Shown here: positions 18,420 through 58,841 of the stretch, in pieces
How positions within the stretch are numbered: position 1 is the first letter of the stretch
Layout: every line of letters begins with the position of its first letter
Notes under the pieces: generated by a model
Database searches by the model: none
Seen by the model: the letters and a program-made list of their open reading frames with translations, nothing else
Told to the model about the DNA's origin: nothing
Position numbers and translations under genes: made by a program
Source: Acidimicrobiia bacterium
Lineage (GTDB): Bacteria; Actinomycetota; Acidimicrobiia; Spongiisociales; Spongiisociaceae
DNA length: 64,000 bases
NCBI GenBank assembly: GCA_965200835.1
Contig: OZ241390.1
Coordinates: 2,327,616-2,391,615, forward strand
Direction: 5' to 3'

Positions 18420-18422
18420 GGT

Positions 18423-18700: not shown

Positions 18701-18744
18701 TGCGATCCTGCGGAACACCAGAACTGTCCGCCTACTCGGTAGTT

Positions 18745-19859: not shown

Positions 19860-20042
19860 TTGTCATCCGACGGCAGCTACAAGTGACGAGACCCATCCGC
19901 CGACCTGCTGGCTGATTTGAGCGGCTATGAGGTTGGGCTGCTTATGTAGGCTCTAACAGCTCTTCGGACGGTTCCGTGGCGCGTGTGATGGGCGTCGAGA
20001 AGGGACAGCCTTATCCTTGGGGCCTACGATAGAACGACTCGC

Positions 20043-21485: not shown

Positions 21486-21564
21486 CTCTCCTCCGGATTG
21501 TGAACCACTGTCAAGCATATCTAAGGGTAACCCAGATCCGTTCGGTACGTGGCACAGTGGGTTA

Positions 21565-41566: not shown

Positions 41567-42409
41567 CTACCGGCCCGCGATCCGTTCATATATGGCAGGC
41601 CGGCGGTCCCGGTAGAACGCCCAATGGAGCCGGACCTCATCGATCAGATCCAGGTCCAGGTCCCTCACCACCACCTCATCGTCGGTGTCCGAAGCCGTGC
41701 CCCCGATGATCTCTCCCCGGGGGGAGGCGAAGTAGGAACTGCCGTAGTAATCCGTTCCCTCGAGGTTCTCGCTACCGACCCGGTTGATGGCTCCCACGAA
41801 ATACTCGTTGGCCACCGCGGCCGCCGGCTGTTCCAACTCCCACAGATACTTCGAGTGTCCCCGGGTGGTGGCTGAAGGATTGAATACGATCTTGGCTCCG
41901 GCCAGGCCTAGCTCGCGCCAACCCTCCGGGAAGTGGCGGTCGTAGCAGATATACACCCCGATCCGCCCCACGGCGGTGTCGAAAACCGGATATCCGAGGT
42001 TGCCCGGCCGGAAGTAGAACTTCTCCCAGAAACCCGCCACCTGCGGGATATGGGTCTTGCGGTACTTGCCCAGATAGGTCCCGTCGGCATCGATGACCGC
42101 CGCGGCGTTGTAGTAATGGCCGGTGTCCTCCACTTCGAAGATCGGCACGATCAGCACCATCGAGGTCTCACGGGCCAGTTCGATCATCCGGGTGATGGTG
42201 GGACCGTCGGGGATGGCTTCGGCGGTGGCGAAGTTCTCGTTCTCCTGATGGGTGCAGAAGTAAGGGGTGTTGAAGATCTCCTGGAAGCAGAGAATCTGCG
42301 CCCCCTGGTCGGCGGCCTGGCGGGCATAGTCGATGTTCTTGCCGATCATGGACTCCTTGTCACCCGTCCACTCGGTCTGGACGAGCGCCGCCCGCACCAC
42401 ATTCGCCAT
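41567..42409 (-). CDS. Nitrilase-superfamily hydrolase, beta-ureidopropionase-like
   Basis: CFQEIF, YRKTHIP, FWEKFYFRPG, ICYDRHFPE, FYRDRRP. Confidence 0.9.
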   Translation of the reverse strand: MANVVRAALVQTEWTGDKESMIGKNIDYARQAADQGAQILCFQEIFNTPYFCTHQENENFATAEAIPDGPTITRMIELARETSMVLIVPIFEVEDTGHYYNAAAVIDADGTYLGKYRKTHIPQVAGFWEKFYFRPGNLGYPVFDTAVGRIGVYICYDRHFPEGWRELGLAGAKIVFNPSATTRGHSKYLWELEQPAAAVANEYFVGAINRVGSENLEGTDYYGSSYFASPRGEIIGGTASDTDDEVVVRDLDLDLIDEVRLHWAFYRDRRPAIYERIAGR

Positions 42410-42450
42410 CCGGTCTCCTTCCTCGGGTCCGTCACGACACGGAATCGGAT

Positions 42451-42473
42451 CCAGTTTACAAACTGTAAAATGG
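42451..42473. promoter_or_regulatory. Palindromic operator between divergent carbamoylase genes
   Basis: CCA(G)TTTACA-AAC-TGTAAA(A)TGG, AT-rich in a GC-rich context. Confidence 0.7.
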
Positions 42474-42501
42474 TGACCCTAAACCGGGGAAGGGTGCTGA
42501 G

Positions 42502-43440
42502 ATGTCACGACGCATTACCGTCGGTGCGGGTCAGATGGGCCCCATCGGCAAGGATGAATCGAAGAGCGACGTAGTGGATCGCCTGCTGGTGCTGCTGCAT
42601 GAAGCGCACGATCAGGGGGTGGACTTGCTGGTCTACCCGGAACTGGCGATGACCACCTTCTTCCCCCGCTGGTTCGTGGAGAATCCGGCCGACTTCGACC
42701 ACTACTACCACCGCGAGATGCCCGACGCCGATACCAAGCGGCTGTTCGACGAGGCGCAGCACCTGGGGATCGGCTTCGTCCTCGGATACGCCGAGATCGA
42801 GACCGACGACCAGGGGACGGAACACCGTTACAACACCTATCTCCTGGTTGAGCGGGATGGTTCGGTGGTAGCCAAGTTCCGCAAGGTCCACATTCCCGGC
42901 CATGCTCAATACGAGCCGTGGCGGGCATTCCAGCACGCCGAGCGCCACTACTTCGAGCCGGGTCCGGATGGCTTCGGTACCTGGCGAGCCTTCGACGGCG
43001 TGGTCGGGATGGCCATCTGCAACGACCGGCGCTGGCCGGAAACCTACCGGGTGCTCGGGTTGCAGGGTGCCGAGCTGATTCTGATCGGCTACAACACTCC
43101 CATCCACTACGCCCCCGACCCCACCCAGAACTCCCTTTCTGCCTTCCACAACCATTTGGTCATGCAGGCGGGCGCGTACCAGAACGGGGCCTACGTGGTG
43201 GGAGTGGCCAAGGGCGGGATCGAGGAGGGGGTGGACAGCCTGGCCCAGAGTGTCATAATCGCCCCGTCCGGGCAGATCATCGCCCAGGCGATCACCATCG
43301 GCGATGAGGTGGTCTCAGCCACTATCGACCTGGACTTCTGCGACACCTACAAGCAGACCCTGTTCAACTTCGACTACTACCGGATGCCGGAGCACTACGG
43401 GCTCATAACCGAACGACGGGGTGCCATCTCTCCGGAGTAG
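42502..43440 (+). CDS. N-carbamoyl-D-amino-acid amidohydrolase (D-carbamoylase)
   Basis: YPELAMTTFFPRW, RKVHIPGH, FQHAERHYFEPG, ICNDRRWPE, GYNTP, AGAYQN. Confidence 0.9.
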   Translation: MSRRITVGAGQMGPIGKDESKSDVVDRLLVLLHEAHDQGVDLLVYPELAMTTFFPRWFVENPADFDHYYHREMPDADTKRLFDEAQHLGIGFVLGYAEIETDDQGTEHRYNTYLLVERDGSVVAKFRKVHIPGHAQYEPWRAFQHAERHYFEPGPDGFGTWRAFDGVVGMAICNDRRWPETYRVLGLQGAELILIGYNTPIHYAPDPTQNSLSAFHNHLVMQAGAYQNGAYVVGVAKGGIEEGVDSLAQSVIIAPSGQIIAQAITIGDEVVSATIDLDFCDTYKQTLFNFDYYRMPEHYGLITERRGAISPE

Positions 43441-43444
43441 GCCT

Positions 43445-44722
43445 ATGTTCGTGACCTCCCTGCGATGCACGGTCTGCCGGCTGTCGTACCATCCCCGGCC
43501 GGGTCGCTACGTGTGCGACGGCTGCGGTGAGGGCGGAACGCTGGATGTCCGGTACGACTACCCGGCTATCAGTGCAGTTCTCTCCCCGCGGACGCTGGCC
43601 TCGAAATCCGACCCTTCCATGTGGCGGTACCGGGCGTTGTTGCCGGTGGAAGCCGGTAGGCCGGTCTCGTCGCTGGGGGTGGGGGGAACGCCGCTAGTCC
43701 CATCGAGGCTGTTTGCTCGGGAGTTCGGGGTCGGGAAGCTCTGGATCAAGGACGAGGGACGCCAACCTACTGCTTCGTTGAAGGATCGGGCCTCGGCGGT
43801 CGCTCTGGCCCGGGCGGCCCAGGAAGGTGCCTCGGTGGTTACCACGGCCTCCACCGGTAATGCCGCGGCGGCGCTGGCCGGTCTGGCAGCTGGAACGGGT
43901 CAGCGTGCAGTGATCTTCGTACCGGACACCGCACCCCAAGCCAAAGTGGCCCAGCTCCTGGCCTTCGGCGCCACGGTGGCGCTGGTCGAGGGGGGATACA
44001 GCGCGGCGATCGAGGTCTGCCAGCAAGCCGTAGCCCGTTTCGGCTGGTACAACCGCACGACCGGGATCAACCCCTACGTGGGCGAGGGCAAGAAGACGGT
44101 GGCGCTCGAGATCGTCGAGCAGCTGGGTTGGGAGGCGCCCGAGGCCATATTCGTCAGTGTGGGCGATGGTTCGATCATCGGTGGAGTCCACAAGGGGCTT
44201 CGGGACGCAATGGCCCTCGGCTGGATCGAGCACATGCCGCGTATCTTCGGTGTCCAGGCCGCTGGTAGCGCGTATCTGGCCGATGCCTGGATGAACGGGG
44301 AGAATGTGCTGACCAAGCTGGCCATCGGTGCGAACACCCGAGCCGACTCGATCAGCGCTGATCTGCCGCGTGACCGGGTCAAGGCCATGGCCGCCGTCCA
44401 GGAGACTGGGGGCGCCTGGGTAGTGGTCGAGGACGAGGAGATCCTGTCCATGATCCCCTACGTGGCAGCCCGGTCCGGGGTGTTTCCGGAACCGGCCGCG
44501 GCGGCTGCCTTCGCGGGCTTGGCCGCGGTCAGCCGGGGGAGCCGGGCAGCTGGCGCTGGTGTAGGGGGGAGTGATCGGGTGGTGGTCATTTCCACCGGCT
44601 CAGGTCTCAAGGACATCCCCGCCACCATGGAAGGGATCAAACAGACCGGAGCCACCGCCCTTCGTGTCCGGCCGGGACCGACGGCCCTCGACCTGTTCGA
44701 AACCAGCCAGAATGGCACCTGA
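43445..44722 (+). CDS. Threonine-synthase-like fold-type II PLP enzyme with Zn ribbon
   Basis: CTVC..CDGC, SMWRY, GGTPL, PTASLKDRAS, ASTGNAA, EGKKT, SVGDG, TGSGLKD. Confidence 0.88.
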   Translation: MFVTSLRCTVCRLSYHPRPGRYVCDGCGEGGTLDVRYDYPAISAVLSPRTLASKSDPSMWRYRALLPVEAGRPVSSLGVGGTPLVPSRLFAREFGVGKLWIKDEGRQPTASLKDRASAVALARAAQEGASVVTTASTGNAAAALAGLAAGTGQRAVIFVPDTAPQAKVAQLLAFGATVALVEGGYSAAIEVCQQAVARFGWYNRTTGINPYVGEGKKTVALEIVEQLGWEAPEAIFVSVGDGSIIGGVHKGLRDAMALGWIEHMPRIFGVQAAGSAYLADAWMNGENVLTKLAIGANTRADSISADLPRDRVKAMAAVQETGGAWVVVEDEEILSMIPYVAARSGVFPEPAAAAAFAGLAAVSRGSRAAGAGVGGSDRVVVISTGSGLKDIPATMEGIKQTGATALRVRPGPTALDLFETSQNGT

Positions 44723-44743
44723 TTCAGCTCTGAGGAAGCCGAT

Positions 44744-46204
44744 ATGATCGATCTGACTGTTGACCGGACCGCTCTCGAAACCGTGGCTGGCCACACGAGG
44801 GAGCGGGCCGTGCGCATCCCGACCTTTGCCCAGATGCGGGACCCATCTCTGATCCCGGCGAAGGTCAAGCGTGACTTGGCAGGCATCGGCCTGTGGGATC
44901 TGCATCCGCTCAACCTGTTCCGGATCACCTGGCACAACGAGCCGGTTAGCCATGGGGGCGGGTTCGGGCCGGTCAATCACGTGGAGTGGCCTCGGGAGCT
45001 AACTGGAACCAGCGCCCGGATCGTGTCCCTGATCGGCAAGTGGTTTCCTACCGGCGCTCACAAGGTGGGAGCCGCCTTCGGATGCCTGGTTCCCCGGCTG
45101 GTGACCGGGCAATTCGATCCGGCTTCACAGAAAGCCGTCTGGCCCTCCACCGGCAACTACTGCCGGGGTGGTGCTTACGACTCGCACCTGTTGGGTTGCG
45201 ACTCGATTGCCATCCTTCCGGAAGGTATGAGCCGAGAGCGCTTCGAATGGTTACACACGGTAGCGGGGGAGATCATCAAGACCCCGGGTTCGGAGTCCAA
45301 CGTCAAGGAGATCTTCGACAAGTGCCACGAACTGGCCTGCTCCGGCGAGGACCTGATGATCTTCAACCAGTTCGACGAGTTCGGCAACTATCTGTGGCAT
45401 GCGTCGGTGACCGGACCGGCTATCGAGTCGATGCTTTCCTCAGTGATGGATAGGAACGACCGGTTCAGGGGAGTTGCGGTAACCACCGGATCGGCCGGCA
45501 CCATCGCGGCCGGTGATTACCTCAAGCAGCGCTTTCCCAGATCCCTGATCGCCGGTGGGGAAGCCATCCAGTGCCCCACCATGCTGCTGAACGGGTTCGG
45601 GGAGCACCGGATCGAGGGGATCGGCGACAAGCACATTCCGTGGGTCCACAATGTGAAGAACACCGATCTGGCCATCGGATTGGACGACGAGGCAGCCATA
45701 GCACTCACCCGGCTGTTCAATGAACCGGCCGGCCAGGACTATCTAGCCGACCAGGGTGTGGACTCCGCAACCGTGGAGCACCTGCCGCTGCTGGGTATTT
45801 CGGGGTCCGCCAACCTGCTGGCCGCTATCAAGATGGCCAAGTATTACGAGATGACCGATAGGGACGTGGTGGTCACGATCGCCACTGATTCGATGGACAT
45901 GTACCGGAGTCGTCTCCACGAGCTGACCGAGGACCGAGGCACCTTTACCACCCACGACGCGGTAGCTGCTTTCCATCGCCACCTGCTGGGTGCGTCCACC
46001 GAACATGTTCATGAGCTCGGTTACTACGACCGCAAGCGGATCCACAACCTCAAGTACTACACCTGGGTGGAGCAGCAGGGGAAGACCTACGAGGAGATCC
46101 AGGCCCAGTGGTATGACGATGATTACTGGACCGGTATCCAAGCCCTGGCCGACCCGATCGACCAGCTGATCGCCGAGTTCAACCACCTAACCGGACTGGG
46201 CTGA
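44744..46204 (+). CDS. Fold-type II PLP-dependent enzyme (cysteine synthase/ammonia-lyase-like)
   Basis: FPTGAHKVGA PLP lysine, PSTGNYCRGG, TGSAGT, HRIEGIGDKHIPW. Confidence 0.85.
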   Translation: MIDLTVDRTALETVAGHTRERAVRIPTFAQMRDPSLIPAKVKRDLAGIGLWDLHPLNLFRITWHNEPVSHGGGFGPVNHVEWPRELTGTSARIVSLIGKWFPTGAHKVGAAFGCLVPRLVTGQFDPASQKAVWPSTGNYCRGGAYDSHLLGCDSIAILPEGMSRERFEWLHTVAGEIIKTPGSESNVKEIFDKCHELACSGEDLMIFNQFDEFGNYLWHASVTGPAIESMLSSVMDRNDRFRGVAVTTGSAGTIAAGDYLKQRFPRSLIAGGEAIQCPTMLLNGFGEHRIEGIGDKHIPWVHNVKNTDLAIGLDDEAAIALTRLFNEPAGQDYLADQGVDSATVEHLPLLGISGSANLLAAIKMAKYYEMTDRDVVVTIATDSMDMYRSRLHELTEDRGTFTTHDAVAAFHRHLLGASTEHVHELGYYDRKRIHNLKYYTWVEQQGKTYEEIQAQWYDDDYWTGIQALADPIDQLIAEFNHLTGLG

Positions 46205-46377
46205 TCCTGGGCGGCGGCAGGTTCGAACTGGTCGGATGGGGGCTGTTCACGGTCTCCGGCGTGGTGTTTCTGGTGGCCGCTATACGAGACGGGGACACCC
46301 TGTTACTTTGGGGCTCGATCACCTGGTTGGTAGGGGTGGCTTTCTTTCTGGCCGCTCATCGCCGGAGCCGAAGCTGA
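46201..46377 (+). CDS. 58-aa two-TM microprotein (not in ORF track), non-canonical CTG start
   Basis: LILGGGRFELVGWGLFTVSGVVFLVAAIRDGDTLLLWGSITWLVGVAFFLAAHRRSRS*; CTG overlaps the upstream TGA. Confidence 0.55.
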   Translation: MILGGGRFELVGWGLFTVSGVVFLVAAIRDGDTLLLWGSITWLVGVAFFLAAHRRSRS

Positions 46378-46379
46378 GG

Positions 46380-46535
46380 CAGGTTAGGAGCTCACTACTA
46401 CTCAGCGTTCCGTACCTTCCTTATGATGGAAGAAACAAAGTATATCGGGTGGTCATTCATACACGAGATATCGAAGAACACAGCGCCTTATTCAGAGATC
46501 TCATAGATCTGGCTCAATCTCATTACAGTAGTTAG
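46380..46535 (+). pseudogene. Low-GC C-terminal gene remnant
   Basis: YDGRNKVYRVVIHTRDIEEHSALFRDLIDLAQSHY* is protein-like and GC drops abruptly; no credible start. Confidence 0.35.
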
Positions 46536-46674
46536 CAGGTTTAGCTTCCTGGATCTAGATCCCCGACCGTCTCTTCGCTCCAGACTGTCCGCTGGTCTCC
46601 ATAGGACACGAGCCGCTCCTAGCCGTCGCTATTCGGCACAGGCGTTGTGCCTTTACAAAGAGCCATTACCCATA

Positions 46675-47154
46675 TCACAAGCCGGATCGTTGGCGGGACC
46701 TCAACCGCGGGTAGCTTTCGAGCCAGGCGTACTTGTGTGCTTCACCAAGGGATAGCTGTGCTGTCGAAGTGTGATTTCCTAGGTAAGGAGCGGCGGCTCC
46801 TAGTTCCTCGACTCTCATCGAGTCTCTGAGGTGAGCACCCGGAGCATGTTCTGCGGCGTCGGGTGGGAGGCCGATGCCCAAGAATCCCTCGATTCTCGAC
46901 AGCCGCTGCACTATCTCGATCTGGAGGGTTCTGATCTCCGCTACTTCTTGGCGGATGCCACCCAACCCGGCTTGCATTTGCCACATGAATCCCAGCACGG
47001 ACAGGACGACGGCTAGGACCGCGGCCGCGATCTGCCAGGGCTTGATTACGGCCACCGCCAGCTGGGCGGCCACCGGGGAGACTACTGGCTGCTGTGTTCC
47101 GGTATGGGCCGTGACAGCCGGGTCGGTGGTCTCCTCCAGGGGCATGGTGGCCAT
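46675..47154 (-). CDS. Hypothetical single-TM/coiled-coil protein
   Basis: AGGAG RBS; TM IAAAVLAVVLSVLGFMW then IRQEVAEIR...RLSRIEGFL. Confidence 0.6.
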   Translation of the reverse strand: MATMPLEETTDPAVTAHTGTQQPVVSPVAAQLAVAVIKPWQIAAAVLAVVLSVLGFMWQMQAGLGGIRQEVAEIRTLQIEIVQRLSRIEGFLGIGLPPDAAEHAPGAHLRDSMRVEELGAAAPYLGNHTSTAQLSLGEAHKYAWLESYPRLRSRQRSGL

Positions 47155-47335
47155 CAGGCTCCTCTCATAACCCAGTGTTTACAGCTAACATATACTATAT
47201 AGCGTTGATAGGATACTGATAACCCGTAACACCGTGTTCCAGGCCTACATACCTGAGAAGAGACGATGGTTAACGGTACCGTCTCCCTACACCCGACCTC
47301 TCAAGCCTTGACAGAGGTCCGCCCCTGGCCCCGAC

Positions 47336-47788
47336 TTACGGAAGGCCCACTCCTATGATCCGGGTGGGATGGACGAAGACAGCGGCTCGGCGCTCGGCAG
47401 CCATCACCCGGTCGTACTCCTCCCAGTCCTCGTGGGTGCCGCCGGCAGCGGTGAACACCTCACGAAGTAGGTGGGCAACCCCAGACGGGTCGAACCCTTG
47501 GTATCCATCGTCGGGACCGATGATGGTGGTGGAGCCTTCGACACCTATCCATGACCATCCTGCCCGGAACACGATGGTGGCCTTCGGGATACGGCGCCAG
47601 TGTCGGAGCTTCACCGTGTTGCCCCGAACCACTAGCGCCACCACCTCCTCACCTGTGACCGGATGGGTCATCACGCCAGCGTTGACCAGTGTGGAGTGTA
47701 CCGACCGGTCGCGGCGAGCGAACGACACCACGGCCAGACCCTGGTCGGCGGCTACGAACCGGCGTACATCATCCATCGTATGGTTCAT
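47336..47788 (-). CDS. PPOX-class F420-dependent oxidoreductase
   Basis: GLAVVS..R.D, VNAGV..HP, GW.W.GVEG, LLREVF.AAGGTHEDWEEYDRVM. Confidence 0.88.
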   Translation of the reverse strand: MNHTMDDVRRFVAADQGLAVVSFARRDRSVHSTLVNAGVMTHPVTGEEVVALVVRGNTVKLRHWRRIPKATIVFRAGWSWIGVEGSTTIIGPDDGYQGFDPSGVAHLLREVFTAAGGTHEDWEEYDRVMAAERRAAVFVHPTRIIGVGLP

Positions 47789-47883
47789 GGCTCGCCTCCT
47801 TGGCTTGCTTGCCCAGCATAGATCCCTGCCTTTACCCGTAACCTCATCCTGTTAAACACCCCGTGTAGCGTCCCGCGATTGGA

Positions 47884-48425
47884 CTACTGCTGGCTCCTGG
47901 TGGCGAGGGCATGTAGCCGGGCAACGCGATGGTCGCGCTCGCCCAGATAGCGAACCAGCACGTGCGCTACCGCGTCGCGGTCGAGGGTACCGGCTGCGTT
48001 CATTTCCTCCAGGTCGGCCCAGTCCCTGGTCCGGTCGAAGAAAGCTTTGAAAACGGCGAGGTCGCGACAGGCGAGGAAAGGTATATCGACGCCGGCGAAC
48101 CGCTCCATGGTGGCCCGGCGGGCGGCAGCCTGATGAAATGGGGTGGTGTTGAAGAACACATCGACGGGGGTCGTGTCCCACCATAGGCGGGCTTGTCCGT
48201 TGCTAGCGATATCGTGCCGGTCGGCGCTGGTGACCCGCACTCCCTCAGGTAGAGCGGCCAGTGTCTCGGTTATCCGATCGAGGCCGACGAAGAGGTTTAT
48301 GTCGATGTCGATCGTGGCGCGGGCTCGCCGGGTACACCAGGCGAGTGCCAGCGCACCACCGAATGCATGAGGGACGGCGGCCCTGTCCAGCGCTGCAGTA
48401 TCACGATGCGTTCGACCAGGTTCAT
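47884..48425 (-). CDS. Nucleotidyltransferase (AbiEii/DUF6036-like toxin), frameshift near 48395
   Basis: ATG 48425 overlaps the HTH stop (ATGA); MNLVERIVIL then shifted AALDRAAVPHAFGGALALAW...RATIDID, FKAFFDRTRDWADL. Confidence 0.75.
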
Positions 48426-48733
48426 CGTCCGAATACCGGCATGTCGAGCGAAGGTGAAGGGCGGCTTGGGAATTCGGCGGCCAACTCCAGCACGGCGGCC
48501 AGCTCGGTACCCGGGTCGAGCCGTTCATCGCCCCGGATCCGTGGACTTAGCTCCCAGTCGAGGGTAAACCCGGCGGCCCTAACGATCCGGTCCAGGGTGT
48601 CACAGGTAGGGATCTTGGTTCCGGCCTCATAGGCCGCGATAGTGGAGTGGGAGGTACCTGCTCGAGTTGCGAGCGCCCTCAGCGTGAGACCAGCTCTGGC
48701 ACGAGCCATTCGGATCACTTCGCCAGCGTTCAC
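48422..48733 (-). CDS. XRE-family HTH protein (antitoxin/regulator)
   Basis: IRMARARAGLTLRALATRAGTSHSTIAAYEAG...P. Confidence 0.88.
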   Translation of the reverse strand: MNAGEVIRMARARAGLTLRALATRAGTSHSTIAAYEAGTKIPTCDTLDRIVRAAGFTLDWELSPRIRGDERLDPGTELAAVLELAAEFPSRPSPSLDMPVFGR

Positions 48734-48746
48734 TTAGGGACCATCC

Positions 48747-48764
48747 GGTATCCGATCAGATACC
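48747..48764. promoter_or_regulatory. Near-perfect palindrome upstream of the HTH/nucleotidyltransferase operon
   Basis: GGTATC(C)GATC(A)GATACC, 14 bp from the start codon. Confidence 0.6.
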
Positions 48765-48877
48765 ACAATAACCCATGCTTGGGACTGTCCCGTCGACTCG
48801 ACCTTTGCCGTATCGATCGGCATGAGCCGCCGGTAGAGTCCGTGTTTGTTGCATATGGCCAGGAGGCGCAAAGACCG

Positions 48878-51826: not shown

Positions 51827-51903
51827 CGACTCGGGGACTCCCTGACCCGCCACTTGCATAACCGGTGAGCGTTTGTCCCCGGGCTGGGCGAGAATCTGAT
51901 CTG

Positions 51904-53685
51904 TTAGGGCCGAACGCCCTTCTCGGAGGGTGGCAGTATGAACCCCTCGGCGCCGTTCAATAGCAGGAGCAGGTCACCCGTCCACTGCGCACCGGCCGCG
52001 TTGGGTTGCACCCAGTAGCCATCAGGATCCTGATGAACCAGGAAGGCCTGTTCGGTCTCCTGCTGGAACCGGTGTTCGGACAGGAAGAGGCGGGGTTTGA
52101 TGACCGCCGGATCGCCAATCTCGGGGCAGAAGACCATGCAGTTCCCGCACTCGTTGCACAACTCGGTCAGCACCAGGTATTGCTGGAGTCCCACCGCATC
52201 GAGTTCGGGTGGGGTCGGTATCCGGAAGAAGGCATCGTTGGGGCACACGGTCACGCAGAAGTTGCAGGCTACGCACCCCCACATCTGCAGCTCGTGGTCC
52301 ACCGCCCGGGGCAGCTTCGAGTTGCCGGCCAGTGTGTACCGGCCGTTGGTGGCCGGATCGTGGAGGGTGGTGATGTAGCCCGCCACCGCTCCCATCCCGT
52401 TGGACAGCGAGCCACGGTAGGTCTGCCACTCGGTCAGCGAGGCCGCTCCCGCTGACGTCATCGCGTTCTGCAGATTCTTGAGCATGGGCTTCAGCCGCCC
52501 GTAGCCACCCGGCTTGAGCAGGTCGGAGCAGATGGTGATGGGAGCAAGGCCGAGAGCGGCGGCATCGGCCAGGTTCTCCTTGGTGATGCCGGCCGAGAAC
52601 GAGACCTGGATGTCCGCATCCTGACCCTCCACCTTGAGCATGCCGGGCAGGGCTCGGTGTAGCTCGCCCAGCAGTGTGGTGGACACGACATGCAGAGGTG
52701 GTCCGGACATGTACATGGTCTCGTCGGGCATGAACCCCTTGGTGTTCTCCACGACCAGCGTGTTGGTGAGCTTGATGCCGAACCGCCGTCCGTGTTCGGT
52801 GGCGAAGCGGTCCAGCTCCCGGATCAGCTCCAGGCCCCGATCGAACTGGAGGTCGTTGTCGAAGTCGGCCTGGCGTAGCACCGTCGATTCGTACCCCAGA
52901 GTGCGCTGCACGATCTCCTGGACCCGATCGAATCCCAGCAGGGTGGGGTTGAGTTTCACGATCACGTCCAGCCCGTGTCGGGTGATGAGATGCTTGGTGA
53001 TCGATTCGATCTCATCGGGGGGACATCCGTGGAAGGTCGACAGCGTCACCGTGTCGGCGATCCGCGATGGGAAGTCCAGGTCCCGATACCGGGAGAATGC
53101 GCCGTCTATTTCGGGACGCAACCGCTTGATCTCCTCTGTGGCATCCATCATGGAGTCGATGAACCAGGCCACCTGATCGGTGGAGATCCCGGCCAGGTCG
53201 TAACCGACCGACAGGTCGAAGATGTGCGGACCGGGATCGTGGCCGATATAGGGGGTGAGCTCGTCCCACTGACGCAGCATCTCGAGGATCATCCAGGCCT
53301 TGACATACTCCTCGAGCGACTGGGGGATCTTCAGTTCCTGGCTCCACTCGATGTTGTAGCCGACGGTCTCCATGTCGATGCACGGTCGCCCGATCTTCAG
53401 CTCGTCGAGGATCTGCACCGTTTTGAGCTCCATCAGCCGCCCGCCCGCCAACCACGACAGCACGATGTTCTGAGCCATCTGGCTGTGTGGTCCAGCCGCC
53501 GGTCCTACAGGGGTGGCCGCCGGCCTGCCCAGGAAGTCGATCGAGATGTCGGGTCCGTCGGACACGTTGAAGAACCGGGCGATAGGGAGATCGAAGATCC
53601 GCCGGCGGGACTCCCACTCGTAGGCGATCCGGTCCAGCAGGTCGGACAGTCCGAACGGAGTGAGCTCCTCATGAGTGTCTGTCAT
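51904..53685 (-). CDS. YgfK-like protein: N-terminal DHODH-like barrel plus 4Fe-4S ferredoxin, lacking the central GltD-like part
   Basis: GPAAGPHSQMAQNI, ELKTVQILD, RPCID, YNIEWSQEL, STFHGCPPDEIE, KLNPTLLG, KLTNT, CSDLLKPGGYGR, CVACNFCVTVCPN, CNECGNC. Confidence 0.85.
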   Translation of the reverse strand: MTDTHEELTPFGLSDLLDRIAYEWESRRRIFDLPIARFFNVSDGPDISIDFLGRPAATPVGPAAGPHSQMAQNIVLSWLAGGRLMELKTVQILDELKIGRPCIDMETVGYNIEWSQELKIPQSLEEYVKAWMILEMLRQWDELTPYIGHDPGPHIFDLSVGYDLAGISTDQVAWFIDSMMDATEEIKRLRPEIDGAFSRYRDLDFPSRIADTVTLSTFHGCPPDEIESITKHLITRHGLDVIVKLNPTLLGFDRVQEIVQRTLGYESTVLRQADFDNDLQFDRGLELIRELDRFATEHGRRFGIKLTNTLVVENTKGFMPDETMYMSGPPLHVVSTTLLGELHRALPGMLKVEGQDADIQVSFSAGITKENLADAAALGLAPITICSDLLKPGGYGRLKPMLKNLQNAMTSAGAASLTEWQTYRGSLSNGMGAVAGYITTLHDPATNGRYTLAGNSKLPRAVDHELQMWGCVACNFCVTVCPNDAFFRIPTPPELDAVGLQQYLVLTELCNECGNCMVFCPEIGDPAVIKPRLFLSEHRFQQETEQAFLVHQDPDGYWVQPNAAGAQWTGDLLLLLNGAEGFILPPSEKGVRP

Positions 53686-54112
53686 TGCTCCGCCCCCGTG
53701 TCCGTCCCTCGCGACGCCCATCGGGATTGGCGCCCGGTCAGCCAAATGTCATGGTCGAAACCCAACGTGTCACACACCTGGGGTAGCTTGTCATTTGCCA
53801 AGACACCGTCGGCCGGTACCGGACGTCCATCCGACCGCATCGGGTTCATCTCACTGAGAGGCGCCTCCCGGAGGCTAAGGCGACGCGCCCACAGACTCGG
53901 ACAGGTGGTGGCGGGGGAGGGTCCAGATGTAGTGGGCGTGGGGCGGTTTTTCGCGTTCTCGGGGTTTGGTCGCTGGCAGTGGATCACCGGTGCCGGCGCA
54001 TCTGCGGCTCGGCGAAGGTCGGCGCAGTGCAGCGACCTCTTTGCCTGCTGGGCACTTCGCGGGATCAGGATCACCTTCAGCCGGGACTGGCGGTCGCGGC
54101 GGTGGAACAGCC

Positions 54113-55141
54113 TCATAGCCGGGCGTGGAGTCGGGTTGCTTGTTCGCGGGCTTTGGCACGAACCTCCTCGGCGTCCACCTTGGTGGGGGAGCCGTCCTGG
54201 TAAACCACCTCGCCGTCTACTTCGACCTTCAGCGGGCGGATCCCGGCGGTGAAGGCCACATGCCAGGGATCCATCGGGTTGTAGCTCCACGTCACCCGAT
54301 CGTTGCGGCATTCGGGGAACAGGTCCCAGCCGGTCCTGAGCCAGCTCCAGGCTGTCTCCGGGCTGGCGGTCACATCCACCGACCGATGCATCACGTAGGC
54401 CAGCCGAAAGGATTCGATCATGTTGGCCCCGATCCCATCGGTCCCCAGGGCGGTCGGGTTGGGAAACCGGGCCGGATCGGCGTACCCGACCGAGTTGTTG
54501 AGGTTGGAACGGGGATTGTGCAGGATGGTCCCGGCCAAGCTGTGGTCGGTGGGCAAATGGACACCGTGGGCGAGCAGCCAGGAGTCCTGGGACAGCCCTT
54601 CCAGGCGCTGGGGAGCATCCCGATCCTCCGGACCCTCGGCCACATGGACGTGCACTCCCACTCCGAACTCGTCGCCTAGGGCGGCAGCCTTTTCCAGGGT
54701 CGACTGTTCGCAGGTGAAGGCGGCGTGGATACCCACCATCCCGTCGCCCCCTTCCGACAGGAACCGCCGGTTCTCCTCCAGGCCTCGCCGGGCATTGTCG
54801 GGGCCATGCCGGTCGGTCACCCCGTAGCAGGTCCGCACCCTCACCCCCACCTCGGCGCACGCCTCTGCGATCACCGACAGACTTCCCTCGATCGCATTGG
54901 GCGACTCGTGATGATCCACGATGGCGGTGGTGCCCGACTCCAGCGCCTCGAGGGCGCCAAGCATGGCTGACCAGCGGATCATCTCCAGGTCGAGGGCCGT
55001 GTCCAGCCGCCACCAGATCTGTTCCAGTATCTCCTGGAAGTTGGTGGGCGTCTCCGGCGGGGCGGGCATGCCTCGGGCCAGGGTCGAATACAGATGATGA
55101 TGGGCGCACACCAGCCCCGGAGTGACATTCGCAGCATTCAT
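54113..55141 (-). CDS. SsnA-like amidohydrolase
   Basis: PGLVCAHHHLYS.LARG, ILEQIWWRLD, DHHESP, GIHAAFT, HVHVAEG, HNPRSN, LGTDG; ATGA overlap with xdh. Confidence 0.88.
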   Translation of the reverse strand: MNAANVTPGLVCAHHHLYSTLARGMPAPPETPTNFQEILEQIWWRLDTALDLEMIRWSAMLGALEALESGTTAIVDHHESPNAIEGSLSVIAEACAEVGVRVRTCYGVTDRHGPDNARRGLEENRRFLSEGGDGMVGIHAAFTCEQSTLEKAAALGDEFGVGVHVHVAEGPEDRDAPQRLEGLSQDSWLLAHGVHLPTDHSLAGTILHNPRSNLNNSVGYADPARFPNPTALGTDGIGANMIESFRLAYVMHRSVDVTASPETAWSWLRTGWDLFPECRNDRVTWSYNPMDPWHVAFTAGIRPLKVEVDGEVVYQDGSPTKVDAEEVRAKAREQATRLHARL

Positions 55142-57723
55142 CGCCGGGCGATCGGCTGATGCACAGCCATCGGAAGCCGATTGCGCCACTGCCCATCCAC
55201 CTCATGCAGGGCCGCCGCTACCGCACCGGCGGTCGGGACCAGACCGATCTCGCCGACTCCCTTGATGCCGTACGGGGCACGAGGCTGGGGAACCTCCACC
55301 AGGATCACGTCGACCGGTGGCATGTCCTTGGGTCGGATGATCCCCAGGCTGCGCAACGTCATGTTGGTGGGTCGGGCCTGGTCGTCCGCCGGGAACTCCT
55401 CCGTCAGGGCATACCCGAGGCCCATGTGGACCGAACCTTCGATCTGGCCCTCGCACAGCACCGGATGTATCGCCTTCCCCACATCGTGCGCGGCGACCAC
55501 CCGCTCGATCCGCCCGGTCCTCGGGTTGGCGATCACCAGCTGGGCGGCGTAACCGAAGGCAGAGTGGATGGTCGGGTTGGCCAGCCCCTCCTTGAGAGAG
55601 TTGGTCCAATCGACCCGATGCTCGCCGTGGTAGTCGACTCCGGGCAATCTCCCCCCTGCATCGGCTGCCCGGCAGGCGGCCTGCACCGCTCCCGCTCCCA
55701 TCAAAGTCCCCCGTGACCCGGTGGTCTGGCCCGCCCCCAGCTCCCGGCTGGTGTCAACCAGCACCCGGATCGATTTGGGATCGACGCCCAGCTCCTCCGC
55801 CGCCACCTGCTGGGCCACCGTGTGGATACCCTGGCCCATTTCCGTCCAGCAGTGCCGCACCTCCACGGTCCCACTCCGGGTGAACCGAACCACCGCCCGG
55901 GCCACTTCCTTGAACCCGTTGCCCAAACCGCTGTTCTTCAGACCGAGGCCGACACCCACCGCCTTACCAGCCGCTCTTGCCGCGTCATAGTGGGGTTTCA
56001 CGGCCTCCAGGCACTCCACAGCCCCCTGGCAGCCGTCGTCCATCACCTGACCAGGTCCCCACACCACGCCCGGACGGATGGCGTTGCGGTGGCGCATCTC
56101 CCACCCCGAGATCCCCACCTGCTCCGCCAAGCGATCCATGACCCCTTCCATGGCGAACTGCGCCTGGTTGGCCCCGAACCCACGAAAGGCACCGCACACC
56201 GGATTGTTGGTCCGAGCGGCCACCGCCTTCACATCAATGTTGGGCACCACGTACGGGCCACTAGCATGACCCGCCGCCCGTTCCAACACCTTCATGCCCA
56301 CCGAGGCATACGGACCGGAGTCACCGAGCATCCGGGCCTTGAGGGCGGTGAGCCGGCCGTGGCGGTCACAGGCTGCCCACAGCTCGATCTCGATCGGATG
56401 CCGCTTGGCATGGATGCGCAGCGACTCCTCCCGTGACAGGGTGCATTTGACAGGACGGCCCAACAGGTGGGAAGCGAGGGCGGTCTGGGCCTGGTTGGCC
56501 ATGTCCTCCTTGCCCCCGAACGCACCCCCGTTGGAAACCAGTTCCACGGTGATGAGAGAAGGGTCGATACCCAGCACCGAGGCCACCTGGTCCCGGTCGT
56601 CCCACACTCCCTGACCGCCCGAATAGAGCATCAACCGCCCGTTCCCCGCCGGCACCACCAGGGTCGACTCGGGTTCCAGGAAGGCATGCTCCACCCGCTG
56701 GGTCACGAACGTCTCATGGATCCGGTAAGGCGAGGAGCGGTAGGCGGAGTCGAAGTCACCCCGCGCATACTTGGAGACGGACAGGACGTTCCCCTCCAGA
56801 CCCCACACCGCATCCTCGGAGGAAGCCACCGCTTTCGCCGGATCGGTGAAGGGCTCCAGCACCCGGTATTCCACCTCGATAGCCTCGGTAGCTTCTCGGG
56901 CGGCCAGTCGATCATCGGCCACCACGATCGCCAGCACGTCCCCGTAGTACGAAGTCCGGCCGCCTTCGGGGATCATCACCGGCCAGTCCTTGTGAATCAG
57001 CCCCACCCGCAGCTCTCCCGGCACATCCGCCGCGGTGAAAACGGCCTCGACTCCGGGGATCGCCTCAGCCGCGCTGGTGTCGATCCTCAAGACATCGGCC
57101 CGAGCGTGGTCGGTGAGGCGTAGTGCTCCGTGGAGGATGCCGTCGAAGCGGATGTCGTCTATGTAGTCCCGATCCCCCAGAGCCAGCTCGTAGCCCTCGT
57201 ACTTGATGCCGGACTTGCCTATCCCGCCCGAAGTCTCCATCGGCGGAATCTCTCCGGCCACCAGCATGTCGACCGCGTCGAAGATCTTGGTGTAGCCGGT
57301 GCAGCGACACAGATGCGCCCCCAGCCGACCGGCCGTGATCCGCCGCTTGAGTCGGGAGCCCTTCTGGTCGATCAGTGCCTTGGTTCGCACCAGTATTCCG
57401 GGAGTGCAGAACCCGCACTGCAATGCGCCGGTGACTGCGAAGGCCGAGGCCAGGCGATCCCGCTCCACCGGGTGGAAGCCCTCGAGGGTGACCACCTCCT
57501 TGCCCGCGACCTTGTCGAGCGACAGGACGCACGCCACCAGGGCCCTCCCGTTAACCAGCACCGTGCAGCAACCGCACTGGCCCGACGGAGCGCAGCCGTC
57601 CTTGGCGGAGGTGATATCGAGCTCCTCCCGGAGGGCCGACAGCAGATGGGGATGGTCGGCTCGGACCGAGACATCCGCTCCGTTGAGTCTGAAACCCACT
57701 GTCCTGCTAGCCGTCAGGGTCAT
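55138..57723 (-). CDS. Selenium-dependent-type xanthine dehydrogenase (fused 2Fe-2S and Mo domains)
   Basis: KDGCAPSGQCGCC, QCGFCTPG, HLCRCTGY, VEHAFLEPE, GGAFGGKED, AFRGFGANQ, GQTTGSR, GIKGVGEIG. Confidence 0.88.
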   Translation of the reverse strand: MTLTASRTVGFRLNGADVSVRADHPHLLSALREELDITSAKDGCAPSGQCGCCTVLVNGRALVACVLSLDKVAGKEVVTLEGFHPVERDRLASAFAVTGALQCGFCTPGILVRTKALIDQKGSRLKRRITAGRLGAHLCRCTGYTKIFDAVDMLVAGEIPPMETSGGIGKSGIKYEGYELALGDRDYIDDIRFDGILHGALRLTDHARADVLRIDTSAAEAIPGVEAVFTAADVPGELRVGLIHKDWPVMIPEGGRTSYYGDVLAIVVADDRLAAREATEAIEVEYRVLEPFTDPAKAVASSEDAVWGLEGNVLSVSKYARGDFDSAYRSSPYRIHETFVTQRVEHAFLEPESTLVVPAGNGRLMLYSGGQGVWDDRDQVASVLGIDPSLITVELVSNGGAFGGKEDMANQAQTALASHLLGRPVKCTLSREESLRIHAKRHPIEIELWAACDRHGRLTALKARMLGDSGPYASVGMKVLERAAGHASGPYVVPNIDVKAVAARTNNPVCGAFRGFGANQAQFAMEGVMDRLAEQVGISGWEMRHRNAIRPGVVWGPGQVMDDGCQGAVECLEAVKPHYDAARAAGKAVGVGLGLKNSGLGNGFKEVARAVVRFTRSGTVEVRHCWTEMGQGIHTVAQQVAAEELGVDPKSIRVLVDTSRELGAGQTTGSRGTLMGAGAVQAACRAADAGGRLPGVDYHGEHRVDWTNSLKEGLANPTIHSAFGYAAQLVIANPRTGRIERVVAAHDVGKAIHPVLCEGQIEGSVHMGLGYALTEEFPADDQARPTNMTLRSLGIIRPKDMPPVDVILVEVPQPRAPYGIKGVGEIGLVPTAGAVAAALHEVDGQWRNRLPMAVHQPIARR

Positions 57724-57780
57724 GACATCCTCCCACCGGATCCTGGATACACCGACGAGCACTCCGGAGGCACGCGCTAC

Positions 57781-57797
57781 TTTTACATTTTGTCAAA
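57781..57797. promoter_or_regulatory. Operator-like palindrome between xdh and the divergent regulator operon
   Basis: TTTTACA-TTT-TGTCAAA; matches the 42455 site at 11 of 12 arm positions. Confidence 0.65.
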
Positions 57798-57907
57798 AAA
57801 ACCGGATTCGTGCAACGTGTTTTCCGGTCGGAGGCGGTCATTCTCGCGCTGTGCCGCTGGCCCGGCGAGTCGGTATACGCTAGGTGTGGTCGACTCGAGG
57901 AGCATGA

Positions 57908-58138
57908 TTGCCCGCCCGCGCCGAGTTCACAGTGGAACCTTTCGAGGAAGGAAACCCCGGTCCCCATGTCAAGGCGGCCATCGAAGCCCTCACGCCCCAT
58001 GCACCCGACATAGGCCCCTTCGGCACGGCCATCGAGGGTTCGGTTCCTGAAGTGTTCGAAGCCGCCGCCGGTTGTGTTGGGGCTGCCATGGACGCCGGAG
58101 CCAGCCGGGTGACGGTGACCATGACCATCACCCCATGA
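57908..58138 (+). CDS. Thiamine-binding-protein-like (YkoF/MTH1187) small protein
   Basis: AEFTVEPF.EG.PGPHV, DIGPFGT, AMDAGASRV; GAGGAG RBS 5 nt before TTG. Confidence 0.75.
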   Translation: MPARAEFTVEPFEEGNPGPHVKAAIEALTPHAPDIGPFGTAIEGSVPEVFEAAAGCVGAAMDAGASRVTVTMTITP

Positions 58139-58506
58139 CAGGCGAGCATCCGCTGATCGAGGCGGTCCGGCCGGTGGCGAAAGCGGTCGGCGCTGAGATA
58201 GTGGACCGGTCCGGTGTGGACGAAAACGCCATCCCCCTCGTCTGGGAAGGGGAAGTAGTGGCCGGAGTCCGCCTCCTCACCCTCCACGATGTTCTGGATC
58301 GGATGGTCGCCCAGGTCGAGACCGAACTGGGCGGAAGGCTGGCCGACCTGGGAAGGGTCGACAAGCAGGTGGCAGTTCGCCTGTTGGATGAGCGTGGGGC
58401 CTTCCGGCTCCGCAAGTCGATCGAGGATGTGGCCGATCTGATGGGCGTCAGCCGGATCACCATCTACAACTACCTCAACCTGATCCGGGGTCGGCGGGAG
58501 TCGTGA
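58135..58506 (+). CDS. HTH_22 (YheO/DauR-type) transcriptional regulator
   Basis: KQVAVRLLDERGAFRLRKSIEDVADLMGVSRITIYNYL; ATGA overlap. Confidence 0.85.
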   Translation: MTGEHPLIEAVRPVAKAVGAEIVDRSGVDENAIPLVWEGEVVAGVRLLTLHDVLDRMVAQVETELGGRLADLGRVDKQVAVRLLDERGAFRLRKSIEDVADLMGVSRITIYNYLNLIRGRRES

Positions 58507-58841
58507 TGGTGAAGGCCCCTGGGTTGATGAGGCGGGCGTTGGTCTGCGTTCTGGTTGTCGTACTGTATGGGTGCGGGGGTGGGGGAGTGGCGGAGGACGC
58601 CACTGGCGAGGAGATATACGTGCAGGTGTGCGCCCGCTGCCATGGCTCGGACCTGCGAGGCGGTACCGGCCTGCCTTTGGTCGGGGAGGACGCTCGTTCG
58701 TTGGGTATGCCGGAGCGTTACTTCGTGCAGTCCATCTCGGCGGGCATCGGCCGGATGCCGTCCTTCCGAGGAGCCCTGACCGACGAGCAGATCGTCCGGG
58801 TGTCCCGCTATGTGATGGAGCAGCAGGACAGTGAACGTTAA
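58503..58841 (+). CDS. Monoheme cytochrome c lipoprotein
   Basis: LYGC lipobox, CARCHG, MPSF, LTDEQI. Confidence 0.88.
   Translation: MMVKAPGLMRRALVCVLVVVLYGCGGGGVAEDATGEEIYVQVCARCHGSDLRGGTGLPLVGEDARSLGMPERYFVQSISAGIGRMPSFRGALTDEQIVRVSRYVMEQQDSER

Follow-up and report, generated by a model that had tools for sequence, protein, structure and literature searches.

The 64,000-nucleotide stretch analysed here, hereafter the window, comes from the genome of an Acidimicrobiia bacterium (GCA_965200835.1, contig OZ241390.1, positions 2,327,616 to 2,391,615 of the forward strand) and carries two gene blocks which, with a probability that we would put at roughly 0.7, form one regulon for purine catabolism of the 2,8-dioxopurine type. 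Block A specifies a xanthine dehydrogenase-like enzyme (XDH), an SsnA-like amidohydrolase and a short form of YgfK; block B specifies two CN hydrolases (CN1 and CN2) and two pyridoxal phosphate (PLP) dependent enzymes (PLP1 and PLP2). ATP would not be conserved in this variant, and the hydrolases and the PLP pair would replace known enzymes of the pathway. Gene content, domain architectures, genome-wide absences, synteny, co-occurrence among genomes and a palindrome shared by the promoter regions make up the observed basis, from which we infer the substrates, the sequence of reactions, the source of electrons and the pairing of regulator and operator. According to two reports, the 2,8-dioxopurine pathway was worked out in 2025 in gut anaerobes only, where it is selenium-dependent and yields ATP via carbamoyl phosphate (PMC12507026; bioRxiv 10.1101/2025.04.24.650524).

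The window genome (G000) is a single contig of 2,835,419 bases, 96.6% complete. Genes in the window were called from open reading frames (ORFs) guided by GC content at third codon positions (GC3), together with Pfam and NCBIfam scans. The class sample consisted of 150 Acidimicrobiia genomes, G000 excluded, which were searched at E <= 1e-30 for SsnA-like, 1e-50 for CN2 and PLP2-like and 1e-40 for DpaL-like proteins. Where handles are needed, G denotes a genome, L a fetched locus and f a family, the window's own family being f1.

Block A is an operon on the reverse strand (51904-57762). XDH (55138-57762, 874 aa) combines, according to Pfam, [2Fe-2S], hammerhead and molybdenum cofactor (MoCo) domains in one polypeptide without a FAD subunit. 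It aligns with positions 3-841 of the 848 of TIGR03311 [Se_dep_XDH], narrowly missing its cut-off (811.1 versus 830.45 bits), and is 24% identical to Escherichia coli XdhD. Glu606 of XdhD has been proposed to orient urate (PMC12507026); at 24% identity the equivalent residue of XDH falls in a gap region that cannot be aligned and is uninformative. In one relative (L027 of G010, 2265-4902) the XDH orthologue was matched in four separate pieces, one at only 47% identity, and may be frameshifted or partly replaced.

The SsnA-like gene (54113-55189, reverse strand) is a 358-aa ORF with an Amidohydro_1 domain; its start is probably Met17 at 55141, the ATG of which overlaps the XDH stop codon, leaving a protein of about 340 aa. 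It scores 270.4 bits against NF005540 (cut-off 444) and 253.7 bits against TIGR03314 (cut-off 455.5), and has no counterpart of profile positions 1-50, that is, about 50 N-terminal residues. The SsnA family is its best match by about 190 bits, the next family scoring 81 bits; it is 33% identical to residues 49-438 of E. coli SsnA, and its sequence shows HxH, His, His and Asp motifs. A frameshifted or pseudogenised ssnA was suspected first, and was ruled out, since 44 of the 150 class-sample genomes share the short form at 61-78% identity. An overlapping ORF of 507 aa (53682-55205), with no family match and poor GC3, is spurious, the true frame being that of 54113-55189.

Short YgfK (51904-53745, reverse strand, 613 aa) consists of the YgfK N-terminal domain and a C-terminal ferredoxin domain with two [4Fe-4S] clusters. 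It matches TIGR03315 over profile positions 4-398 of 1012 only (433.2 bits, cut-off 835.3) and shares 40% identity with its E. coli counterpart over residues 5-408 and 898-978, residues 409-897 of the latter remaining unmatched. The GltD-like FAD/NADPH module (Fer4_20 and Pyr_redox_2) is absent, and tblastn with E. coli YgfK and YgfT revealed no separately encoded GltD-like protein in the window genome. This short form is shared across f1 at 78-88% identity; long forms of 1130-1213 aa, in f6, f7, f9 and f11, carry Fer4_20 and Pyr_redox_2. The N-terminal domain has been modelled as FMN-binding in E. coli (PMC12507026). All three genes lie on one strand, with those of XDH and SsnA overlapping, and their order is kept in all 18 fetched f1 loci that could span the complete operon. 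Between ssnA-like and ygfK lies a spacer (53686-54112) of about 430 nt with no convincing ORF, as against about 20 nt in many relatives and about 300 nt in genus g7. An Rfam scan of the window found tRNA only, with no riboswitch in the promoters or in this spacer.

Block B (41567-46204) is separated from the 3' end of short ygfK by 5.7 kb (to PLP2) to 10.3 kb (to CN1). CN1 (41567-42409, reverse strand, 280 aa; CN_hydrolase, 219 bits) does not reach the cut-off of TIGR03381 [N-carbamoylputrescine amidase] (258.7 versus 410.25 bits), and its PDB matches lie at 172-190 bits, N-carbamoylputrescine amidase (5h8i) and the beta-ureidopropionases (2vhh and 6ftq) scoring about equally. It is 73% identical to a CN hydrolase in a pyrimidine-type cluster of the same genome, and because of this paralogue CN1 orthology calls are unreliable across the class. 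CN2 (42502-43440, forward strand, 312 aa) belongs to the D-carbamoylases (the N-carbamoyl-D-amino-acid amidohydrolase family): its residues 1-307 align with residues 1-305 of 8i99 (8i99/6lcg, 384.8 bits; 1fo6, 344 bits), and it combines this full-length similarity with conserved Glu, Lys and Cys segments, presumably the catalytic triad. The two genes are divergent in f1 and in G036, G059 and G118, G036 having the same arrangement as the window.

PLP1 (43421-44722, forward strand, 433 aa) is a ThrC-like fold-type II PLP enzyme with an N-terminal Cys4 ribbon (PALP, 236 bits). It falls somewhat short of PRK08197 (282.5 bits, cut-off 303) and TIGR00260 (163.6-164.3 bits, cut-off 167.1), and its Lys121 is invariant in 29 sequences. 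It is not the ThrC of this genome, a separate gene at C1:1777972-1778967 exceeding the TIGR00260 cut-off (244.6 bits). PLP2 (44744-46204, forward strand, 486 aa; PALP, 45.9 bits) is an uncharacterised member of the CysK/CBS clade, with a best PDB match of 55 bits as a single sequence and 77.5 bits as a profile, and 83.3 bits against TIGR01139 [cysteine synthase] (cut-off 350.95). Its Lys107 is invariant and the mean column identity is 76%. The PLP2 orthologue of G030 (L041, 14454-15927) lies in two frames, one for query residues 1-193 and the other for 197-485, which may reflect a frameshift or an assembly error.

Four enzymes expected from the E. coli pathway are absent from the window genome as a whole. 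The best scores were 29.9 bits for YgeW (TIGR03316, cut-off 500), 112.8 bits for YgeY (TIGR03526, cut-off 321.5), 26.8 bits for carbamate kinase (arcC/YqeA; TIGR00746, cut-off 358.25) and 40.3 bits for DpaL/YgeX (NF006058, cut-off 276), the last match being PLP1 itself. Searches by tblastn with the E. coli proteins agree in finding no canonical form of any of the four. DpaL-like queries from four Acidimicrobiia genomes had no match in this genome, while Acidimicrobiia ornithine transcarbamoylase (OTC) and carbamate kinase queries retrieved only sequences of 26-29% identity, which we took for argF/pyrB, and no kinase.

All the genes named in the initial annotation are thus present where it placed them. 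Its operon of a Se-type XDH, an SsnA-like and a YgfK-like gene stands at 51904-57762, with a truncated YgfK and a short SsnA, and with a selenium label that is not backed by YqeB or YqeC. The two PLP enzymes and two carbamoylases that it set 6-10 kb away were measured at 5.7-10.3 kb, and the lack of YgeY, YgeW, carbamate kinase and DpaL, claimed for this region, holds genome-wide.

That the two blocks belong together is suggested by their distribution in the class sample. SsnA-like proteins occur in 44 of the 150 genomes, CN2 in 37 and PLP2-like proteins in 39. Every genome with PLP2-like (39/39) and all but one with CN2 (36/37) are SsnA-positive, the exception, G171, being a partial match of 53% identity at a contig end. 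Many of the negatives come from a single large family, f16, with 35 genomes. More telling than the raw counts is the patchy but concordant distribution within families: in f4 the same three of 15 genomes have SsnA, CN2 and PLP2, and in f13 one of eight has both SsnA and CN2. Within f1, CN2 and short YgfK occur together in 20 of 24 genomes; G024 and G008 have CN2 only, G011 has neither, and G023 has a partial CN2 at a contig end.

Gene positions point the same way. Where CN2 and SsnA coexist they are usually on the same strand within 5.1 kb (26/36), typically with a gap of 2.6 kb filled by XDH, four pairs being directly adjacent; of the remainder, one pair is 1.4 kb apart on opposite strands, six are on different contigs and three are 24-610 kb apart. 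G012 and G016, which belong to another genus of f1, and G036 of f2 have CN2 immediately ahead of XDH in the same orientation. Elsewhere in f1 the CN1-CN2-PLP1-PLP2 block is found 3.6 kb to 1.2 Mb from the XDH operon, or on another contig.

The SsnA-positive genomes without CN2 number eight (families f6, f7, f10 and f33), and three of them were examined. Two, G088 and G162, have OTC-OTC-carbamate kinase-PLP1-PLP2-SsnA-YgfK in a single run, and in G030 SsnA and YgfK are followed by two OTC-family genes, carbamate kinase, PLP1 and PLP2. The G030 kinase scores 385 bits (cut-off 266); those of G088 and G162 were seen by tblastn only, at 72% and 66% identity to it. These genomes therefore have two transferases and a kinase just in front of the PLP1-PLP2 pair, the position taken by the two hydrolases in the window genome.

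A further link is an operator-like palindrome present in both promoter regions: TTTACAAACTGTAAA (42455-42469) lies in the 92-nt intergenic region between the divergent CN1 and CN2 genes, and TTTACATTTTGTCAA (57782-57796) about 20 nt upstream of the XDH start. Only two sites in the 2.84 Mb genome match the consensus TTKACA-N3-TGTMAA perfectly, one for each block. A single one-mismatch site occurs elsewhere (C1:1543952), between an ARPP-1 gene and a gene for an NrtR-type Nudix regulator, a setting that suggests an unrelated site rather than a regulon member; sites with two mismatches are mostly inside genes. In shuffles of the window that preserved dinucleotides, 0.09 sites were expected with one mismatch allowed, and none of 100 shuffles reached two.

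The palindrome is conserved among relatives. Of 50 Acidimicrobiia loci taken from the neighbourhood of ygfK or ssnA, 0.93 Mb in total, 22 have perfect sites. These 31 sites lie ahead of XDH, in the CN1-CN2 or CN2-XDH intervals, or next to an HTH_22 gene. The site between CN1 and CN2 recurs in L013, L014, L021, L023, L028, L043 and L045. Upstream of XDH a perfect or one-mismatch site is present in 16 of the 18 whole-operon f1 loci, L016 having a two-mismatch site and L030 none; in L031 the sole site is located elsewhere in the locus. Across the best 80 PLP2 loci (1.28 Mb) perfect sites were confined to two f1-type loci, between CN1 and CN2. The obvious candidate for the regulator is the HTH_22 protein (58072-58506, forward strand, 144 aa; PF13309, 65 bits), divergent from XDH, whose gene adjoins the XDH operon in f1 and CN1/CN2 or dpaL in G036, G059, G061, G101 and G111; its pairing with the palindrome is predicted from position.

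Several proposals of the initial annotation may be judged on these comparisons. Its split regulon is supported by a promoter palindrome common to both blocks with no other perfect match in the genome, and the survey of related Acidimicrobiia that it called for showed the carbamoylase and PLP genes to co-occur, and often to co-locate, with ssnA. Its suggestion that the carbamoylases would hydrolyse both ureido groups and that a PLP enzyme would serve for DpaL draws support from co-occurrence, synteny, the exchange of modules and the palindrome. Of its description of the pathway as nitrogen-releasing rather than ATP-yielding, the loss of ATP conservation stands; the contrast does not, both versions of the pathway releasing the ureido nitrogen.

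Following the published pathway (PMC12507026; bioRxiv 10.1101/2025.04.24.650524), we propose that the FAD-less XDH, as a urate/2,8-dioxopurine oxidoreductase, would interconvert these two compounds and that short YgfK would act as the 2,8-dioxopurine reductase, reducing the ring by means of its YgfK-like N-terminal domain and two [4Fe-4S] clusters. Because its FAD/NADPH module is missing, the electrons would have to come from a donor other than NAD(P)H; ferredoxin, XDH itself and a PPOX/F420-type protein are candidates. The short SsnA-like amidohydrolase would then open the pyrimidine ring, and a hydantoinase encoded elsewhere would yield 2,3-diureidopropionate. CN2 is the proposed hydrolase of the 2-ureido group and CN1 that of the 3-ureido group, together giving 2,3-diaminopropionate, which the PLP1/PLP2 pair, in place of DpaL, would turn into pyruvate and ammonia. 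Both promoters would be controlled by the HTH_22 regulator through binding to TTKACA-N3-TGTMAA. The loss of ATP from carbamoyl phosphate is plausible for this organism, since its genome contains haem-copper oxidase subunit I, which suggests aerobic respiration.

A number of observations weigh against this scheme, which is predicted from gene context. None of XDH, the SsnA-like protein and the YgfK-like protein reaches its NCBIfam cut-off, which leaves room for a different substrate. There is no hydantoinase in or near block A or block B. Two dihydropyrimidinase/D-hydantoinase genes elsewhere in the genome exceed the TIGR02033 cut-off (570.7 and 554.7 bits versus 393.25), each with its own CN hydrolase; neither has a perfect or one-mismatch operator site, and their similarity to the cluster-linked hyuA genes of relatives (42-43% identity) is no greater than that to E. 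coli HyuA (40%). CN1 is found near CN2 only in f1, G036, G059 and G118, and is absent from the other 18 of 20 class-sample loci fetched. The E-value thresholds were of our own choosing, related genomes are non-independent samples, and the palindrome was first spotted by eye in both promoters and counted genome-wide afterwards. PLP2-like and DpaL-like proteins occur together in G104, G112, G036 and G150 and may not be strictly equivalent; 29 of the 39 PLP2-like matches are only 45-49% identical and may represent a different subfamily; and the scheme does not account for the need for two PLP enzymes.

In the class sample DpaL-like genes occur in 13 of the 150 genomes, among them all five SsnA-positive genomes that have no PLP2-like gene, so that every SsnA-positive genome (44/44) holds one type or the other. 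PLP2 adjoins ssnA in G088, G162 and G177. In G036 a DpaL-type gene (323 bits, cut-off 276) directly follows short ygfK, giving CN2-XDH-SsnA-YgfK-DpaL, as would be predicted if the carbamoylases make diaminopropionate. One likewise follows short ygfK in G016, where it runs into the contig end and was seen by tblastn only (54% identity).

In a protein search with PLP2 the best 120 clusters listed are all at least 74% identical, and in a scan of species genomes 599 of the 600 matching stretches listed encode a relative, so that at least 599 genomes hold one; the relatives have no public names other than "pyridoxal-phosphate dependent enzyme" or "cysteine synthase." Acidimicrobiia, Chloroflexota, Myxococcota, SAR324, Desulfobacterales and others contribute the best 80 loci, at 64-86% identity. 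At distances of up to 10 kb from PLP2 these have PLP1 in 50, carbamate kinase in 27, an OTC-type transferase in 25, a hyuA-like gene in 17, XDH in 14, ygeY in 8, an ssnA-type gene in 8, ygfK in 7 plus 2 of the short type, and ygeX in none. A SAR324 locus has, besides PLP1-PLP2, YgeY (73% to E. coli), YqeA, XDH, SsnA, YgeW (65%) and YgfK; a Polyangiaceae locus combines the pair with YgeY (54% to E. coli), SsnA and an OTC-type transferase (34%), with no YgfK match.

It is possible, if unlikely, that the pathway is as proposed and that the PLP pair is not a diaminopropionate ammonia-lyase. Albizziin (3-ureidoalanine) is a 2-amino-substituted beta-ureidopropionate, and a CysK/CBS-type enzyme might eliminate or replace the beta-substituent of albizziin or of diaminopropionate, to yield urea, serine or a different beta-substituted alanine; alternatively, one PLP enzyme might racemise the D-product of a D-specific carbamoylase and the other cleave it. 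The only solved relatives of PLP2 are indeed beta-replacement enzymes (CysK, CBS and beta-cyanoalanine synthase) rather than DpaL, and a single lyase reaction does not explain why PLP1 and PLP2 are paired in 50 of the 80 loci. Many loci, moreover, have one OTC-type transferase and no YgeY beside the pair, which leaves one ureido group unaccounted for, and the four genomes just mentioned as having both PLP2-like and DpaL-like genes fit this alternative as well. Diaminopropionate lyase activity is nevertheless favoured by the presence of DpaL-like genes in all five SsnA-positive genomes that lack PLP2-like, by the two transferases in f10 and f7 genomes, and by the two carbamoylases of the window genome, which would suffice to reach free diaminopropionate.

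Distinctly less probable is the degradation of some other nitrogen heterocycle, such as another oxopurine, a pteridine or a hydantoin-type compound, with a likeness to the gut pathway at the family level only. The shortfalls of XDH (811 versus 830 bits), the SsnA-like protein (254-270 versus 444-455) and the YgfK-like protein (433 versus 835) would agree with this, as would an SsnA-like protein about 50 N-terminal residues short, a YgfK without its NADPH module, YqeB and YqeC not being found, the haem-copper oxidase of the organism and at least eight other XdhA/CoxL-like genes in its genome. Set against these, the SsnA and YgfK families match far better than any other, the runner-up reaching 81 bits; the SAR324 and Polyangiaceae loci join PLP1-PLP2 to canonical YgeY and SsnA, the former also to YgeW and YgfK; and in G036 a true DpaL stands at the end of the operon. 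Two enzymes of the oxidative urate route, 2-oxo-4-hydroxy-4-carboxy-5-ureidoimidazoline (OHCU) decarboxylase and 5-hydroxyisourate (HIU) hydrolase, are also absent from the window genome.

That the carbamoylase/PLP block is independent of the XDH operon, serving for instance the salvage of ureides derived from D-amino acids or pyrimidines and lying nearby by chance, seems to us very improbable: the blocks are separate transcription units in the window with unrelated genes between, their distance in f1 relatives runs from 3.6 kb to 1.2 Mb and the 73% identical CN1 paralogue sits in a pyrimidine-type cluster, but most other Acidimicrobiia have CN2 within the XDH operon, CN2 and PLP2-like genes hardly ever occur without SsnA, and the shared palindrome is unique in the genome.

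Going beyond the regulon proposed here, one might speculate, with considerable doubt, that Acidimicrobiia run the reductive purine pathway as a self-contained aerobic module needing neither selenium nor NAD(P)H. Electrons from the [2Fe-2S] clusters of XDH would pass to the [4Fe-4S] clusters of short YgfK, directly or via a PPOX/F420-type protein, so that purine hydroxylation would pay for ring reduction and the conversion of hypoxanthine to dihydro-2,8-dioxopurine would be redox-neutral overall. PLP1-PLP2 would then be an unrecognised two-protein lyase for diaminopropionate or albizziin that has taken the place of DpaL in numerous environmental genomes from several phyla (Chloroflexota, Myxococcota, SAR324 and Desulfobacterales).

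With regard to selenium, YqeB and YqeC were not found in the window genome, and the "Se-type" label of XDH is a matter of family resemblance only, without support from maturation genes. The genome does have SelD (368.6 bits; G000:C1:1817688-1818614) and tRNA-SeC (C1:742750-742838). The selD gene contains one in-frame TGA and probably encodes a selenocysteine-containing SelD; this TGA, taken with the tRNA, means that SelD is explained by selenocysteine use. YqeC occurs in four of 40 relatives, in three beside an XdhD/YgfM-type enzyme and in the fourth without an XDH-SsnA-YgfK operon; no f1 genome with that operon has it. Three loci (L038, L039 and L040, from G029, G040 and G034) combine, in an E. 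coli-like arrangement, ssnA, a long ygfK, a ygfM-like FAD subunit gene and a 970-aa XdhD-like enzyme, with XdhC/YqeB-like genes in all three and yqeC in L040. As these belong to related families, selenium-type and selenium-free versions coexist within one order.

The stretch between the blocks contains two ORFs without family matches, a gene for a small protein of the PPOX-class F420-dependent type and, on the other strand, a gene of the FN3/SLH surface-layer type. The PPOX-like protein (47336-47788, reverse strand, 150 aa; TIGR03618, 65.1 bits, cut-off 79) is a possible accessory redox protein, and in f1 its gene follows short ygfK at a distance of no more than 150 nt in 12 of the 19 loci and of no more than 1.3 kb in 15. 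In the window the two are separated by the FN3/SLH gene (48647-51826, forward strand, 1059 aa) and by a 214-aa ORF without family matches (47884-48528, reverse strand); since ygfK and the PPOX-like gene are adjacent in most f1 relatives, this looks like an insertion splitting the tail of the operon. On the far side of XDH, a gene for a monohaem cytochrome c (58503-58841, forward strand, 112 aa) with a lipoprotein-type N-terminus and a visible CxxCH (PF13442, 57.5 bits) overlaps the HTH_22 gene by 4 nt. It is conserved beside the regulator gene across f1, and its membership in the pathway is uncertain.

Some further features of the genome may be recorded. Two parts of the window, 16001-22000 and 62001-64000, have a GC content of 0.56-0.57 as against about 0.64 elsewhere and may be acquired islands. 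Searches by tblastn with E. coli proteins disclosed at least eight XdhA/CoxL-like large-subunit genes besides XDH, a set which makes this 2.8 Mb genome unusually rich in molybdenum hydroxylases. The reductive pyrimidine pathway consists of dihydropyrimidinase, a beta-ureidopropionase of the CN hydrolase type, beta-alanine transaminase and malonate-semialdehyde dehydrogenase. The pyrimidine-type cluster mentioned above (L143, G000:C1:1245818-1253245) specifies the CN hydrolase 73% identical to CN1, an aminotransferase, a dihydropyrimidinase (C1:1249190-1250611), a methylmalonate-semialdehyde dehydrogenase and an F420-dependent luciferase-like monooxygenase (LLM) type oxidoreductase (TIGR03842, 546 bits, above cut-off). 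No dihydropyrimidine dehydrogenase was seen in this stretch, and the F420 LLM oxidoreductase might carry out ring reduction. With a CN1 paralogue and a dihydropyrimidinase of its own, the cluster does not need CN1. The second dihydropyrimidinase (C1:718502-719911, in L144, G000:C1:717580-723800) is accompanied by a CN hydrolase 49% identical to CN1 and lies beside a three-subunit molybdenum enzyme of the CoxLMS/glyceraldehyde-dehydrogenase-like type, a short-chain dehydrogenase/reductase (SDR) and an F420 LLM enzyme; it is a candidate for an uncharacterised heterocycle pathway.

If the regulon is as proposed, the 44 SsnA-positive genomes suggest that about 30% of the sampled Acidimicrobiia carry a rebuilt version of the pathway. 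Four steps would be taken by unrelated enzymes, offering test cases for non-orthologous displacement, and functions can be proposed for a large family named only "cysteine synthase" or "PLP-dependent enzyme" and for its ThrC-like partner. CN2 would represent a D-carbamoylase with a likely natural substrate, and a small regulon is defined by two promoters, one palindrome and one candidate regulator. The pathway would also be relevant to the recycling of purine nitrogen by marine and host-associated Acidimicrobiia; among the f1 relatives, one carries the name Candidatus Poriferisocius.

Among the closest known systems is the reductive urate (2,8-dioxopurine or "yanthine") pathway of E. coli, encoded by ygeW-ygeX-ygeY-hyuA-yqeA and ygfK-ssnA-ygfM-xdhD (PMC12507026; bioRxiv 10.1101/2025.04.24.650524). 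The window shares with it an operon of a molybdenum hydroxylase, a protein with YgfK-type N-terminal and ferredoxin domains that is presumably a reductase, and an SsnA-type amidohydrolase, as well as an expected last step in which a fold-type II PLP enzyme cleaves a C3 diamino acid. Unlike E. coli, the window locus has no YgfM FAD subunit, YqeB or YqeC; its SsnA is about 100 residues shorter and its YgfK lacks the equivalent of residues 409-897; a CN hydrolase would stand for YgeY, and PLP1 and PLP2 for YgeX; and the genes lie in two blocks with one operator.

Clostridial variants are also close. According to the same two sources (PMC12507026; bioRxiv 10.1101/2025.04.24.650524), UacX of Clostridioides difficile is PydA-like and has no FAD domain, UacY is a D-aminoacylase homologue that replaces YgeW/YqeA hydrolytically, and the XdhAC/DOPDH variant of Clostridium sporogenes has an XdhAC without FAD subunit. 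The window resembles these in its fused Fe-S/MoCo enzyme without FAD subunit or NAD(P)H use, in a ring reductase without FAD/NADPH module and in the predicted hydrolytic removal of the 2-ureido group with D-stereochemistry by CN2. It differs in that the reductase is derived from YgfK rather than PydA, that the hydrolase is of the nitrilase superfamily rather than an amidohydrolase-fold D-aminoacylase, that a CN hydrolase, and not the M20 peptidase YgeY, is the proposed enzyme for the second ureido group, and that the host has an aerobic terminal oxidase. The clostridial enzymes also need SelD and YqeB/C, of which YqeB and YqeC were not found here.

CN2 aligns over its full length with the D-carbamoylases (1fo6, 1erz, 8i99) of the hydantoinase/D-carbamoylase pair used for D-amino-acid production; unlike these it has no hydantoinase beside it and in most relatives forms part of a purine-type operon. 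CN1 recalls the reductive pyrimidine pathway through its 73% identity to the CN hydrolase of such a cluster in the same genome, but is arranged head-to-head with a D-carbamoylase under a shared operator and not with a dihydropyrimidinase.

That such a pathway can be partly hydrolytic and independent of NAD(P)H is already known in principle from UacY and UacX (PMC12507026). The same paper describes SsnA from both Actinomycetota and Chloroflexota and marks every PF00291 neighbour as "YgeX," so its SsnA network may include PLP1 and PLP2 undistinguished from YgeX. In the literature, supplements not covered, we found no description of nitrilase-superfamily carbamoylases or of a ThrC-like/CysK-like pair in the 2,8-dioxopurine pathway. 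What is new, and supported by the comparisons above, is the window's version of a known pathway, which is widespread in Acidimicrobiia and the PLP1-PLP2 module of which extends to several other phyla.

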